Shown: positions 59,379 through 64,000 of the stretch, one piece after another | How the letters are laid out: the number at the start of each line of letters is the position of its first letter | Numbering within the stretch: the first letter of the stretch is position 1 | NCBI GenBank assembly: GCA_963719945.1 | Contig: CAVRDX010000004.1 | Span: 256,001-320,000 of the forward strand | DNA length: 64,000 bases | From: an uncultured Thermoplasmata archaeon | GTDB taxonomy: Archaea > Thermoplasmatota > Thermoplasmata > UBA10834 | Reading direction: 5' to 3' | Translations under genes and position numbers: made by a program | Notes under the pieces: generated by a model | Told to the model about the DNA's origin: nothing | Seen by the model: only the letters and a program-made list of their open reading frames with translations | Databases searched by the model: none

Positions 59379-59878
59379 ACGTAAAGGGCAGAGTCTGGTT
59401 GTTCGGTGACGATGTGAATACCGATTTGATAATCCCGGGCCGATACCTTGACAATTACGATCCTTCGCACCTTGCAGCGCACGCGATGGAGGGTGCGAAT
59501 AAGGAGTTCGCGTCGAAAGTCTCTCCTGGAGATATCGTTGTCGCGGGGTGCAATTTCGGATGCGGTTCGAGCAGGGAACAAGCAGTGATCGCCTTGAAGC
59601 AATCTGGCGTGTCGGCCGTGATCGCGAAGTCATTCGCGAGGATATTCTACAGGAACGCGATCAACCTCGGCCTTCACGCAGTGGAATGTGATGATGCAGC
59701 TAGCGTATTCTCGGATGGCGAGATCGCTCTGCTGGATATCGATGCTCATACGATGTGCTCCGAGAACGGATCCAGTCGCGTGGAGCTCAAAGAGATCCCA
59801 CACCACGCAAAGAAGATCATCGACTCCGGAGGACTCATACCTCATCTGAAGTCTCAGATCGGAAAGAGGGAGCATTGA
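59375..59878 (+). CDS. 3-isopropylmalate dehydratase/homoaconitase family small subunit
   Basis: DDVNTDLIIP, NFGCGSSREQA and SFARIFYRNAIN. Confidence 0.93.
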   Translation: MNVKGRVWLFGDDVNTDLIIPGRYLDNYDPSHLAAHAMEGANKEFASKVSPGDIVVAGCNFGCGSSREQAVIALKQSGVSAVIAKSFARIFYRNAINLGLHAVECDDAASVFSDGEIALLDIDAHTMCSENGSSRVELKEIPHHAKKIIDSGGLIPHLKSQIGKREH

Positions 59879-60094
59879 CGGTCGAAACGAACCAGAACGG
59901 TGGAATCATATTCTTCATTTAGCCCGATCTCCTATCGAAATGGCAGACTTCGTGGTCGAGGACACTTTCGGATATCTCGGGCTAGCGATACTGTTATTCA
60001 TAGTCGTTTACGTGATTTTGCGCCTTCTGACGCATCGGCACTGACGCTCCCATCCTGCAAAGGCTATTATATGCCAGACTAATCACCGCATTGC

Positions 60095-60171
60095 GGGCCC
60101 GTGGGGTAGTTAGGATATCCTTCTGGCCTTCGAAGCCGGTGACGTGGGTTCAAATCCCACCGGGCCCGCCA
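60095..60171 (+). tRNA. tRNA-Arg(TCG)
   Basis: GGGCCCG/CGGGCCC acceptor; CTGGC-CTTCGAA-GCCGG; GGTTCAAATCC; encoded CCA. Confidence 0.95.
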
Positions 60172-60986
60172 GACTTCCCAAATACTTATTGTGGGAAGGG
60201 TCATATAGGTGGAATTGGGTCGTAGCGTGGGGACATGGCATCGAAAGCGCGACTATTTCAAGTAAATCGACGAATGCTGTACGGAATTCTGGCTCTCGCA
60301 GTTGCCGTTACTGTGATTTTGGCTGGTATCTTGTACTATCTGGATGCCCACCGATACCCGTCCGAAGAAACTCCTCTCGTGTTGCGCTCCTGGGGAATCA
60401 GCTGGGTCATGGAGCAGGAAGATCTCGATCATCTATTTCTAGTGTCTCCGTTTGAGAACATTAGTTTGTTGTGGACCGATTTCGGTGGCGTCTATTACGG
60501 GAGCCCACCTCTGAATTCGACATTCCCTCGGGTGAGCATATCTCAATTCGAGCTGCCGGACAACGTGACAACATTGTTCGAGACTTACATCGTCGGTTGG
60601 CATTCCGACAACACTGTGAATGGAGTCCGCATCATTGGCGCGTACGGAGTCTTCATAACGGACGAGAATGAGAACGGCTTGTTTGACTATGGGGACGCAA
60701 TCTCTCTCTTCTATGGAGTCTATGAGAATGGCACACTGACTCAACAGGGATTTCAAAGCGCTACTGAATATGGCATAGGACTATACTCTTCAGAAAATCT
60801 CTTGCATTCATCCATACAGTTCAAGTACGCAATCCATCACGAAAGGCTTTACGCCTGGGCATCAAATTAGCCTGAAGATTGGATGGAAAGAAAGAGGGTT
60901 TTGTGCCCGAGTGCATCTTCCCCGTGATTGAATCTCTGAGTTAGACTACTGGTCTAGCGGCATGGCGATACCCACCGGGCCCGCCA
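60156..60986. mobile_element. Putative integrase-free mini-element/cassette A (815-bp unit)
   Basis: Bounded by direct repeats CCCACCGGGCCCGCCA (60156-60171, 60971-60986); one ORF; conserved arm at the right end. Confidence 0.6.
60235..60870 (+). CDS. Hypothetical single-TM membrane-anchored protein (cassette A cargo)
   Basis: 211 aa; N-terminal TM; DENENGLFDYGD Ca-binding-like loop; lower-GC codons by eye. Confidence 0.7.
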   Translation: MASKARLFQVNRRMLYGILALAVAVTVILAGILYYLDAHRYPSEETPLVLRSWGISWVMEQEDLDHLFLVSPFENISLLWTDFGGVYYGSPPLNSTFPRVSISQFELPDNVTTLFETYIVGWHSDNTVNGVRIIGAYGVFITDENENGLFDYGDAISLFYGVYENGTLTQQGFQSATEYGIGLYSSENLLHSSIQFKYAIHHERLYAWASN

Positions 60987-60988
60987 CC
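60897..60988 (+). repeat. att-like repeat copy 1 (arm plus tRNA-Arg 3' end)
   Basis: TGCATC..TGATTGAA-11-GACTACTGG-9-ATGGCGATACCCACCGGGCCCGCCACC; aligns with 62560-62650. Confidence 0.9.
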
Positions 60989-62648
60989 ATCCATAGCCAG
61001 TAATCAAGTCTCGCTTCTCAATCAGGGTCTTTAGTGTGCCGGGGTTCCTACCATTTACCGAAGGTTCGTGGGCCAAGGATTCGGTTTGAATCACCGGTCC
61101 TCATGAAGTCCCGTGACATCCATCCATTCCTGGTGTTCTCTCCTCTTCCTACGTCTATGCATTATTAGGCCCACGACCGCGACAGCAACGAATCCGACTA
61201 GAGCCGTCCGCAAGCCAGAATCGTACAGCGCGTACTCAAATCGATCTGGGTCGAGCTGGCTGGTCACATAGACAGTCACAGAAGTCTCGCCACTATCTGG
61301 AATGCGCACCTTTTGATAATAGACCACGTGTACATCCCGGCTCTCATCTGTCGCGATCGCGATGCTCTCCTCCCAAGACCATCCTTGACAATCGTCTAGT
61401 ATCTGCACCTTCCATGCTCCATCTGCGTTCGTACAGTATCTCACGGTGTGGTTGGCAGTCTCTCCATCATAGTCCTCGACAAAATACCCCATGTGGATAT
61501 CTCCGTCTGAGTCGACTGTGATCGCCACACCTGTACCATATCCTTTCTCATTTCCCCCATATGCCACATCTTCGCTTTCCCAATCGCCATCAGCATTGGT
61601 GAAGTAGCATAAGCTGTAATTGTCTCCCTTGCTTCTGTAAGCGCTGATGTACGCATTACCTGAGGCGTCATGACAGAGCGATTTCTCGCCAGGGTATCCG
61701 CCCAGATTTGGAATAACGGTGGCGTCAGTCAACTCGCCGTTCGATATGACACTGTAATTGAGTTGCCATGAGATGATAGTGTCCCATCCTAACAGGTCGT
61801 AGGTCGTATAGATCATGCCTATTGATCCGTCCGGGCGACTGTCGACATCATCGATTGAGAATACTCTGTACGGAATATATGACTCCTTTAGAATCGTGCT
61901 GTCCCAGCCTTGCGGAGTGCGTATCATATCGATGATGGATGAATTCATGTTCACGGTTGACTGCCCGGTATCTCTTGAGTAAATCAGGTGGACATTGTCC
62001 TGAGCATCGATTGCAACCTTGGCAGACGAAGGGTACCCCGTTATGTTGATCATCTCGCTTTCCCATTCACCGCCAGCGTTTGTGGCAAATAAGATGTGCT
62101 GACCATATAAGTTCATGACCGGTTTGTACAACGATGTGCACACGTATACTCTATCTTGGGAATCCAGTGCTATCGAAGCACCCTCATGGTCCCAGGATAG
62201 ATATGACAAGCAGGTGAGGTCCCATTCGCCTCCTACTCTCTGTCCGTAAAGGAGTGCATAATATGGACCGTATACTCCGATGTATGCGAGCTGAAGCTCT
62301 CCTTCAGAATCCCACGCCAACTGGTAGAACCCGTCTCCGGCAGATGTGTAACCGAGTTCTTGAGTTGGCCACCGAGAACTTGTCATGTACTCCCAGGCAA
62401 AGCTCGATGTGAAAACCAGGGCGGCTACGACAACTATGCCAACAGTTGCTTTCCTAGTTGTGTCCATTTCCACTCCACCGTGCAAATCCCAAGATGCTTT
62501 TTCAGTATTAAGAATCCACGTGTGCTGCAGAGTCGATATGCACGAAGAGAACTGTAAGTGGTTTGTGTCGAATGCATCATACCCATTGATTGAACCTCCG
62601 TGTCTGACTACTGGCACGGAATGATGGCGATACCCACCGGGCCCGCCA
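60971..62648. mobile_element. Putative integrase-free mini-element/cassette B (1662-bp unit)
   Basis: Bounded by core repeats 60971-60986 and 62633-62648; inverted arm motifs at both ends; one ORF. Confidence 0.65.
61091..62467 (-). CDS. Surface beta-propeller protein with N- and C-terminal TM helices (cassette B cargo)
   Basis: About seven blades of type SIALDSQDRVYV / VAIDAQDNVHLIY / ITVDSDGDIHMGY; C-terminal TM plus RRRKRR; GGTGGAG upstream of ATG 62467. Confidence 0.8.
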   Translation of the reverse strand: MDTTRKATVGIVVVAALVFTSSFAWEYMTSSRWPTQELGYTSAGDGFYQLAWDSEGELQLAYIGVYGPYYALLYGQRVGGEWDLTCLSYLSWDHEGASIALDSQDRVYVCTSLYKPVMNLYGQHILFATNAGGEWESEMINITGYPSSAKVAIDAQDNVHLIYSRDTGQSTVNMNSSIIDMIRTPQGWDSTILKESYIPYRVFSIDDVDSRPDGSIGMIYTTYDLLGWDTIISWQLNYSVISNGELTDATVIPNLGGYPGEKSLCHDASGNAYISAYRSKGDNYSLCYFTNADGDWESEDVAYGGNEKGYGTGVAITVDSDGDIHMGYFVEDYDGETANHTVRYCTNADGAWKVQILDDCQGWSWEESIAIATDESRDVHVVYYQKVRIPDSGETSVTVYVTSQLDPDRFEYALYDSGLRTALVGFVAVAVVGLIMHRRRKRREHQEWMDVTGLHEDR

Positions 62649-62650
62649 CC
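62560..62650 (+). repeat. att-like repeat copy 2 (arm plus tRNA-Arg 3' end)
   Basis: Same motifs and spacing as copy 1, offset 1662 bp; last 27 bp identical. Confidence 0.9.
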
Positions 62651-62768
62651 CTTTCATCATGGGTTGAGCTAGTGAATCTCTATGTGGGCGAACACAATCA
62701 AAGACAGCTATTAATTGCTCCACATGGTTCTGCAGTACGATGATTGGTCGTGATGCGGAGAACGATGT

Positions 62769-63770
62769 ATGATGTCTAGAAGAACTCATGCGGGTTGGCA
62801 AGTACGCCGAGCATCTTCTGACGATGCAGGGCCCATAGTGGCGCTAATCAACGCCCACGCGCGGCACTACTATGGCGAGGACCGTATTGGATTGGATGAA
62901 GTGAGGACGTGGTTCACCTCCCCGGGCGTAGGACAGGACGACACGCAATCTTGGTGGTGGGATGACGGCACGCTTGTGGCTTATGCACAGGTCTACCGAC
63001 CTGGATTTCCGGGTATGTGGGACGTACTACACGATGTTACGGTTCACCCAGATGAGGCTGGTAACGACGAGCTTTGGAACGATGCCTTTGCATGGTGTGA
63101 CCAGTATCAATGGAAGCTGCGACATCAGTCTAGCACATCACATACGAGCATGGTCTGCGGGGCTCGCATCCATGAGAACGACGTAGACAAGCGTAGACAA
63201 TACGAATCACGGGACTTCAAACATATTCGAAACGAGACTCTGATGCGGATTAGATTTCCAGAGGTCGTGTCGAAGGACGTGGCAAATCCAAGCGGGGTCA
63301 CGATACGCGAACTCGACCTGGAGACTGATATGGATGCCTATGCGATGGCTTATGGAGAGGCGTTTCGCGATCACTGGGGCCACGTCGACATTCCGCAAGA
63401 CGAGCAGGTGCGCAGAAAGAAGGCGGAGTTCAAGTCCTGGGGTCAGATGTACGTGCCAGGCCTGTGGTTCGTCGCTCTTGACGGTGACACAATCGTGGGG
63501 AGCGTCGGCAGCTTCCTGAACTTCGGCAATGTCCCAGGACGCTGCTATCTCTATCATGTATTCGTGCGTCGCGCCTGGCGTAACCGCAGGATAGCTACGA
63601 CGCTTCTCCGCACCACATTCCATGAGCTGCAGCAACGCGGTGGGAGGATCGTTGAGCTGCATGTCGATTCTGACAACATGACGTACGGCCTTGAGCTCTA
63701 TCGCGGTCTTGGTATGAAACCGGTTTGGCACCAACGTTTGTACGAGAAGGCGGTCCCGATATCCTGCTAA
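62769..63770 (+). CDS. Tandem-domain GNAT acetyltransferase (MshD-like architecture)
   Basis: VHPD, EAFRDHWG, VRRAWRNRRIA, LHVDSDN and LYRGLGM. Confidence 0.85.
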   Translation: MMSRRTHAGWQVRRASSDDAGPIVALINAHARHYYGEDRIGLDEVRTWFTSPGVGQDDTQSWWWDDGTLVAYAQVYRPGFPGMWDVLHDVTVHPDEAGNDELWNDAFAWCDQYQWKLRHQSSTSHTSMVCGARIHENDVDKRRQYESRDFKHIRNETLMRIRFPEVVSKDVANPSGVTIRELDLETDMDAYAMAYGEAFRDHWGHVDIPQDEQVRRKKAEFKSWGQMYVPGLWFVALDGDTIVGSVGSFLNFGNVPGRCYLYHVFVRRAWRNRRIATTLLRTTFHELQQRGGRIVELHVDSDNMTYGLELYRGLGMKPVWHQRLYEKAVPISC

Positions 63771-63899
63771 CAGCCATCGTCTTCATGCTATTCTCATCGT
63801 AGCTCGCCCTGGTATGATAGAGCCTCCCTGAAATATCTCCGCTGATAACCGTTGCATCGATAATCCATATCTTTTCAGTCACTGCCAGTATCTGAATGA

Positions 63900-64000
63900 C
63901 TAGGCGAGTTCCTTCTCGCGGAACAGGTACGCGCCGAGGACAAGGAATATGATCGTCAGAACGATTATCACGAGGACTGAGTCGAAGAAGCCAGTGGCCT
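63900..64000 (-). CDS. C-terminus of a membrane protein, probably an ABC-2 permease (partial)
   Basis: Manual translation ...DSVLVIIVLTIIFLVLGAYLFREKELA*. Confidence 0.6.
   Translation of the reverse strand, partial: ATGFFDSVLVIIVLTIIFLVLGAYLFREKELA

Follow-up and report, generated by a model that had tools for sequence, protein, structure and literature searches.

The organisation closest to the one described here is the SNJ2 type of haloarchaea (PMC5861418), which has a 13-14 bp core at the transfer RNA (tRNA) 3' end, conserved P and P' arms and an integrase (Int) gene whose C-terminal codons cover the core-side arm (Wang et al. 2018, PMC5861418). The attachment (att) system of mv4 also targets a tRNA 3' end (bioRxiv 10.1101/2023.11.06.565760). 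In a review of archaeal tyrosine recombinases, att identity blocks of 8 to 243 bp are listed, there are few archaeal att sites whose definition goes further than this block, and the att-site section describes no long dyad-symmetric arms (PMC8371274). The window analysed here, a stretch of 64,000 nucleotides from an uncultured Thermoplasmata archaeon (contig CAVRDX010000004.1, positions 256,001 to 320,000), carries behind its tRNA-Arg(TCG) gene a symmetric stretch of 139 bases, situated where two integrase-less cassettes, A and B, meet. This dyad is probably a composite attachment site in which the attR of cassette A is fused to the attL of cassette B. The anatomy of this site and the origin of its arms are new here.

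The dyad at position 60974.5 is real, and its retention in relatives is the stronger proof of it. The three motif pairs that a sequence-only reading had placed on this single axis are all present there: TGGCG (60963-60967) with CGCCA (60982-60986), GACTACTGG (60944-60952) with CCAGTAATC (60997-61005), complementary at eight of nine positions, and TGATTGA (60925-60931) with TCAATCA (61018-61024). Identity with the tRNA 3' end (60156-60171) begins at 60971, which is the left edge of the central 8 bp, again in agreement with that reading. Without gaps, 32 of 70 mirrored positions (+/-70 nt) are complementary, compared with a window mean of 17.5+/-3.8 over all axes; only 20 of the 63,859 axes in the window score 32 or more, and in the shuffle control that had been suggested the best axis of a locally shuffled sequence equals or exceeds the observed score in 0.5% of cases. 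In-silico excision of cassette B, joining 62562-62648 to 60987-61056, leaves the axis unchanged and yields 32 of 60 complementary positions, a score reached by none of 300 shuffles, which bears out the prediction that removal of B would restore a symmetric site.

The view that the middle core repeat (copy 1) is a P-O-P' joint between stacked elements is supported by the relatives, which have tRNA genes followed by P' (attL), P arms followed by a core (attR) and full P-core-P' joints, and by the synteny with genomes G005, G006 and G010, which breaks exactly at the tRNA end. The third repeat (copy 2, 62633-62648) has the left arm only, as had been described, and the P' model gives no match beyond it. 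Its designation as the terminal attR holds in so far as no att site can be recognised further on; the variable island itself, however, continues to 63903.

Both arms were traced by a search of relatives and by profile models of each arm; a family-wide BLAST search with the 64-nt right arm alone found only five sites and was too insensitive, so profile models were used instead. The P-arm model R1, built from sequence only, has ~190 matches in 42 of 46 family genomes. P arms always lie to the left of a tRNA 3'-end copy, and P' arms directly follow a tRNA gene or such a copy; elsewhere in the genome from which the window derives, P' arms lie behind tRNA-Ala(CGC), tRNA-Gly(GCC) and tRNA-Ala(TGC), and P arms precede other tRNA-end copies. 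Natural P-core-P' joints number nine, in G010, G006 (two), G043 (two), G055, G024, G004 and G009. The P arms and reverse-complemented P' arms of 20 elements form a colinear alignment with three common blocks, CCGAGTGC (or its variant AGCTCCGG), TGATTGA and ACTGGC, at fixed distances on both arms, and opposite-strand hits of the P model fall on P' arms. At homologous sites the inverted motifs are kept, as is their spacing, which the sequence-only reading required. Ungapped mirror scoring misses some reconstructed sites (G010 B, G006 E2 and G058) owing to small indels, and gapped alignments were substituted for it.

The distance from the arms to the tRNA core is also constant. The span CTGG...ATAGCC measures 40 nt in all eight parsed joints and in the tRNA-Trp joint of G009, with cores that come from at least four different tRNAs; as read from the sequences, block 3 of P lies 18 nt from tRNA position 61, and position 61 lies 22 nt from the P' block. 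The symmetry centre corresponds to tRNA positions 61-68 in all joints, and the central 8 bp fall inside the identity block in all cores. The core repeat varies in length from 14 to 24 nt, and in its two shortest forms (16 nt for Arg-TCG and 14 nt for Gly-GCC) tRNA identity starts exactly where the central 8 bp begin on the left. TGGCG and CGCCA flank the centre in the window, and the innermost pairs vary with the tRNA end. The two arms switch jointly between subfamilies: block 1 exists in two types, and in tRNA-Trp elements block 2 takes the variant form TGATTTC/GAAATCA. Downstream of the tRNA-Arg gene of G018, a decayed P' arm is followed by host ABC-transporter genes, and no element was found there.

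The P' arm of the window is what remains of a tyrosine-integrase gene, namely its last ~20 codons. In G022 and G004 it is the end of an opposite-strand tyrosine integrase gene (PF00589), which heads towards the tRNA and stops 2 nt short of it. The G004 integrase, which abuts tRNA-Arg(CCT), is intact (377 amino acids; L084 216..1349, minus strand), with the catalytic region ...LGHSSTLTTERYY... and the C-terminus ...PLIEPRADYTGYA before the stop codon; the tail within the P' arm reads ...NSPLIEPRADYTGYA, likewise up to the stop. Translated in this tail, block 2 gives LIE and block 3 gives TGY, while the preceding APAP/CPSA comes from block 1. At 20 of 30 loci the P' model finds the integrase gene's 3' end. 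Relatives of the C-terminal 139 amino acids of the G022 integrase occur in 37 of 49 genomes from the order, and many of these relatives are short C-terminal remnants adjoining tRNA-Arg, -Trp, -Ala and -Pro. Over 39 nt the P' arm of the window shares 90% identity with the integrase remnant behind tRNA-Arg(TCG) of G058. At the protein level it resembles the intact integrase over 12 residues only (E 0.097), and its assignment is based on the nucleotide profile and the intermediate remnants. A 42-nt match of the right arm in an adenosylhomocysteinase gene (C4:188652-188693; L003 about 1500-1545; 83%, E 1.3e-4), which covers ...IAGYGW... codons resembling the ...ITGYGW relic, is probably due to chance.

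The P arm, in turn, is an inverted, non-coding pseudo-copy of the same gene end, kept by constraint at the DNA level. P arms are non-coding, lying before or after the cassette open reading frames (ORFs), yet they retain the blocks and the frame spacing, and the almost invariant TGATTGA in these non-coding arms argues that the constraint acts on DNA.

According to the mechanism proposed here, the elements would enter tRNA 3' ends by tyrosine-integrase site-specific recombination. The free attP would consist of two mirror-image ~65-bp arms around a 44-bp centre, the P' arm being provided by the 3' end of the integrase gene, antisense towards the tRNA, and the P arm by its inverted non-coding copy. 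Since P is an inverted copy of P', every P-core-P' arrangement, whether free circle or tandem joint, is dyad symmetric. The blocks would be bound as duplex DNA by the integrase and/or a partner protein, with the formation of a two-fold symmetric complex, and strand exchange would occur in the central ~8 bp, presumed to be 60971-60978 in the window. Cassettes A and B would have kept the arms and lost the integrase, and could move only with an integrase supplied in trans, as cis-mobilisable cassettes. Indirect indications of mobilisation in trans come from the cassette order, which differs between relatives, and from related cargo behind different tRNAs.

The likely enzyme is the dedicated integrase family whose gene end forms the right arm, and not the host XerA, which the sequence-only reading had named beside other integrases. 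This integrase is a distant Xer relative, with XerA proteins as the nearest solved structures; it scores 53.7 bits, compared with a XerA cut-off of 220 bits. Its N-terminus is strongly basic (RRGRKRG in G004, RGRPRR in the copy of the window's own genome). When the G004 integrase was compared by tblastn with a phage collection, 38 records matched (E<=1e-3), of which the 15 listed are weak matches to bacterial phage integrases; neither SNJ2 nor an archaeal virus is among these 15, the SNJ2 content of the collection being unchecked. A 234-amino-acid resolvase-type serine recombinase (PF00239 and HTH_7, with the catalytic-serine motif) adjoins the integrase in five independent loci, and is absent beside most family integrases and from all integrase-remnant joints. 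It is a candidate for a partner protein, for multimer resolution or for directionality control.

Synteny breaks, the placement of cargo B and junctions in metagenome contigs show that insertion and replacement took place at the cores. With G005, G006 and G010, homology is lost precisely after 60171; breaks in relatives fall at the tRNA end or at a core. Cassette A is shared with G010 at 92% identity up to 61003, where G010 continues with a cassette other than B; that cassette (B') is the same as E2 of G006 and has different neighbours in each genome. Homologues of cargo B occur in only 3 of 45 other family genomes, at 55-64% amino-acid identity, and each lies right behind a tRNA gene, namely tRNA-Trp in G009, tRNA-Arg in G019 and tRNA-Ala in G050. 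In metagenome contigs, other P' arms directly follow 60171 and 60986, and the body of A is joined to a different P-arm subtype. Excision joints, either lacking B or from circular B, were not reported in contigs of four metagenome runs over 59800-63000, where B is largely uncovered; metagenome contigs drop rare forms, which makes this absence uninformative either way.

Arrays of this kind are present at several tRNAs, and cassettes apparently move between them. The intact G004 element extends from the tRNA to a P arm and 19-nt core 7 kb away, behind which lie two integrase-less P-arm cassettes. In the second of these (L084 8397-8500, G004:C34) the P arm is followed by a core resembling the end of tRNA-Ala and not of tRNA-Arg(CCT). 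In the window's own genome, a scan for tRNA tails detected arrays at tRNA-Leu(CAA) and tRNA-Val. The tRNA-Leu(CAA) array (C1:139110-157850) contains eight direct copies of the last ~16 nt of the tRNA over 18.6 kb, each preceded by a conserved ~70-nt arm of another family. The smallest unit of the present family seen is a complete 556-bp mini-cassette behind tRNA-Gly(GCC) in the same genome (C1:299485-300129), comprising a P' arm, a small ORF, a P arm and a 14-nt core.

The features of the locus are given in Table 1. The 16-nt core is present three times in the window, and the left flanks of the two downstream copies are alike over ~85 nt (78% identity). Cassette A consists of a P arm and one ORF, cassette B of P' and P arms and one ORF; neither has a recombinase gene, and no tyrosine integrase gene is found within the window. 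The ORF of A encodes an N-terminal membrane helix and has no family match, and that of B encodes a signal or transmembrane segment at both ends, with a weak match to BNR-type repeats. In the P arm of A, block 1 is CCCGAGTGCA (60907-60916), and blocks 2 and 3 are the TGATTGA and GACTACTGG of the outer and middle motif pairs; the core-proximal 18 nt contain TGGCG, the mirror of the tRNA end. In the P' arm of the window, blocks 3' and 2', the right halves of these pairs, are intact.

Table 1. Positions of the att-related features in the window (numbered from its first nucleotide) and of the resolvase-type genes beside family integrases.
Feature	Position	Strand	Remarks
tRNA-Arg(TCG) gene	60095..60171	+	ARAGORN, called intact; last 16 nt (60156-60171) = attB-type core
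Cassette A body	60172..60886	+	Hairpin right after tRNA, then ORF 60235-60870 (211 amino acids)
P arm, right end of cassette A	60887..60970	+	nhmmer P model E 3e-27; model R1 E 1.3e-15; alignments A1, A2
Core copy 1	60971..60986	+	16 nt identical to tRNA 3' end: T-stem 3' strand, acceptor 3' strand, discriminator, CCA
P' arm, left end of cassette B	60987..61050	-	Integrase-gene relic, last ~20 codons; minus strand reads ...LIEKRDLITGYGW
Cassette B body	61051..62547	-	ORF 61091-62473, 460 amino acids
P arm, right end of cassette B	62548..62632	+	Three blocks, spacing as in P arm of A; 78% identical to it
Core copy 2 (attR of B)	62633..62648	+	16-nt tRNA end; no P' arm after
Further variable segment	62649..63903	+	GNAT acetyltransferase gene 62769-63770
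Resolvase-type loci	L055 2635-3339 (G004:C34); also L058, L071, L078, L049/L069

The variable island spans 60172-63903, and the conserved flank common to G005 restarts at 63904. Its last part, with the GNAT gene, is a third variable unit, at whose right end no att site can be recognised: neither 63771-63903, where the island ends, nor the corresponding part of G005 yielded a recognisable att remnant when searched. This segment is absent from G005, which has an unrelated 387-amino-acid secreted protein in its place. At the other end of the island a hairpin (60174-60198, CTTCCCA...TGGGAAG) directly follows the tRNA CCA, where a P' arm would stand. Similar palindromic trailers (...TTCTTCTGAGAAGAG..., ...GGCCATAGGGG...) lie behind the last att copy at other tRNAs, and these may be native tRNA trailers.

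Taken singly, the window joint has symmetry of only moderate significance; the case is carried by the comparison with relatives. Several observations weigh against a functional composite site. The left end of cassette A lacks a P' arm, and in the P' arm of the window block 1' is decayed. The only family integrase found in the same genome (C2:21789-22787, L073 766-1863; 365 amino acids), which has an intact catalytic region and an alpha/beta-hydrolase gene behind it, is without the conserved ...PLIE...GYA tail, and it lies on another contig than the window, with no tRNA on that contig. Pfam detects no arm-binding domain in the family integrase, and the neighbouring resolvase could be the arm binder or even the enzyme. 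The present-day activity of the window joint is unproven, and it may be an inert scar, in which case the anatomy would be as described, A and B would be fixed remnants and the symmetry would be inherited but disused. This is a real possibility, though the less probable one: no family integrase with the tail was found in the genome, which is 87% complete, in the P' relic the stop codon has been lost by mutation (TAG to TGG) and block 1 is decayed, the position of A is unchanged between the window and G010, and the arms of orthologous fixed cassettes are decaying in G017, G019 and G050. The genome is incomplete, however, and the P arm of A is intact, as are blocks 2 and 3 in the arms to the left and right. 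What follows copy 1 is also a different cassette from that of G010 although the P arms of the two are 94% identical, which implies that an exchange took place at this joint after the lineages split.

The sequence-only reading had suggested that the symmetry may be due either to recombinase binding sites or to a folded single strand. In the second case the arms would pair, as a single strand or cruciform, and a recombinase would read the hairpin as integron integrases read attC. The minimum-energy fold of the window joint is indeed one long hairpin centred on the dyad axis, but it is weak compared with shuffles (-20.5 kcal/mol and z -1.28 as single-stranded DNA, z -2.23 as RNA). Some joints fold well, such as that of G010 (z -7.8), but z-scores over 11 natural or reconstructed sites run from +1.2 to -7.8. 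The joint change of blocks 1 and 2 on both arms is equally expected of a paired hairpin, and this change, like the dependence of the innermost pairs on the tRNA end, fits either model. On the question of covariation as opposed to sequence conservation, RNAalifold recovers the mirror pairs in the nine joints with a covariation term of just -0.03; the sequence of the paired blocks hardly varies, and the 12-nt spacers separating them lack complementarity across the arms, which is the opposite of the attC pattern. The tRNA-identical crossover region would moreover occupy the apical loop instead of the stem, and the integrase scores 22.8 bits where the integron-integrase cut-off (TIGR02249) is 265 bits. 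Because the blocks are conserved in sequence, the spacers are non-complementary and the fold energies are inconsistent, duplex binding sites are favoured and an attC-like hairpin is improbable. A role of the arms in RNA meets similar objections. In the excised circle, transcription of the integrase gene would carry the mRNA across the core and on into the inverted P arm, giving it a 3' hairpin that is absent when the element is integrated, acting as a terminator or as a retroregulator like sib of lambda, where int/sib offers the analogy. P as an inverted copy of a transcribed gene end and the RNA fold of the window joint (z -2.2) agree with such a role, but the inconsistent fold energies, the lack of covariation beyond subfamily switches, the exact distances of the arms to tRNA position 61, superfluous for an RNA hairpin, and the retention of arms by cassettes without an integrase make it very unlikely. 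The chance that the resolvase-type serine recombinase works on the dyad in place of the tyrosine integrase is similarly slight. Serine recombinases typically use dyad-symmetric sites, and the Resolvase and HTH_7 protein with its catalytic-serine motif stands beside the integrase in the five loci mentioned; but it is not beside most family integrases or at any integrase-remnant joint, resolvase sites measure ~30 bp, and a tRNA 3' end repeated directly over 14-24 nt, with an integrase gene overlapping the site, is the hallmark of tyrosine integrases. Least probable are transposon ends, with P' and P as terminal inverted repeats and the core as target-site duplication, comparable to family-2 casposons. 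The arms are inverted repeats at element ends, the tRNA 3'-end repeat is 14-16 nt in some cases, and casposons target tRNA ends in Thermoplasmatota. A search of the window's genome and 40 relatives for Cas1 (PF01867), however, was negative for that genome and for 23 of 24 family genomes, and the Cas1 loci have no arms in their vicinity; the repeat length is variable, and one arm consists of a tyrosine integrase gene. Casposon-type ends were rejected on these grounds.

With a duplex-bound composite att site as the preferred reading, the anatomy of an archaeal integrase site becomes concrete and testable, with three blocks per arm, fixed spacings of 18 and 22 nt from tRNA position 61 and strand exchange predicted within 8 bp. 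It accounts for the same arms serving at least six different tRNAs and for array-internal joints that resemble complete attP sites. More tentatively, the lineage may run a tRNA-anchored system of gene capture, in which constant arms surround an exchangeable 44-bp centre copied from the tRNA and integrase-less single-gene cassettes, retaining nothing but the arms, are actively shuffled in trans among arrays at many tRNAs. A dedicated integrase, possibly with a resolvase-type partner, would read the arms, and such a system could be a functional analogue of the integron with a different enzyme and site logic; this, too, is put forward as a speculative extension. If the cassettes are still mobilised, genes for surface and membrane proteins would be collected in this lineage in an integron-like manner, and the arms would be a ready marker for such cargo in metagenomes.

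Compared with known systems, the locus shares with the att sites of tRNA-targeting tyrosine integrases the tRNA-identical direct repeats bounding the insert, the intact tRNA, the synteny break at the tRNA end and, in G004, an autonomous member with the integrase gene next to the att site. It resembles SNJ2 in its short tRNA 3'-end core (14-24 nt here), in the C-terminal integrase codons that lie over an arm and in being widespread in one archaeal lineage. It differs in that inverted repeats or symmetry are not mentioned for SNJ2, that the accessory proteins there are coiled-coil and MarR-like and not a resolvase, and that no integrase-less single-gene cassettes are reported (PMC5861418).

The cis-mobilisable elements (CIMEs) and tandem accretion of streptococcal ICEs (integrative and conjugative elements) and IMEs (integrative and mobilisable elements) offer a parallel for the stacking: these are att-bounded units that have lost their recombination genes and are stacked at one target, with internal joints that are attR/attL hybrids and in principle movable by a related integrase in trans (PMC5704250). 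CIMEs, however, are bacterial and tens of kb long, whereas the units here are archaeal, single-gene and 0.5-2 kb, with many arrays per genome and mirror-symmetric joints. The attP sites of lambda, P2 and mv4 (bioRxiv 10.1101/2023.11.06.565760) have a core in which a 7-8 bp overlap is flanked by inverted half-sites, as may be the case here, and carry distal arm sites to the left and right, as here; their arm sites are asymmetric repeats of one motif, in contrast to the three different blocks in mirror order found here, and only here is a whole arm the end of the integrase gene.

Membership of the integrons, the casposons and the Xer/dif systems fails in each case on at least one defining feature. 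As in integrons, recombinase-less single-gene cassettes form arrays with an imperfect inverted repeat of 60-140 nt at each joint, but the anchor is a tRNA gene and not attI/intI, the boundary is the tRNA core and not the R box GTTRRRY, and there is no integron integrase; sequence blocks are conserved with unpaired spacers, whereas attC conserves structure and leaves sequence free, and crossover would occur at the dyad centre and not at its base. As in archaeal Xer/dif, a tyrosine recombinase would act on a dyad-symmetric site, and XerA structures are the nearest to the integrase. The dif site, however, is 28 bp long, with 11-nt arms and a 6-nt spacer, compared with ~65-nt arms and a 44-nt centre here; the integrase falls well below the XerA cut-off, and the XerA gene of the window's own genome lies elsewhere.

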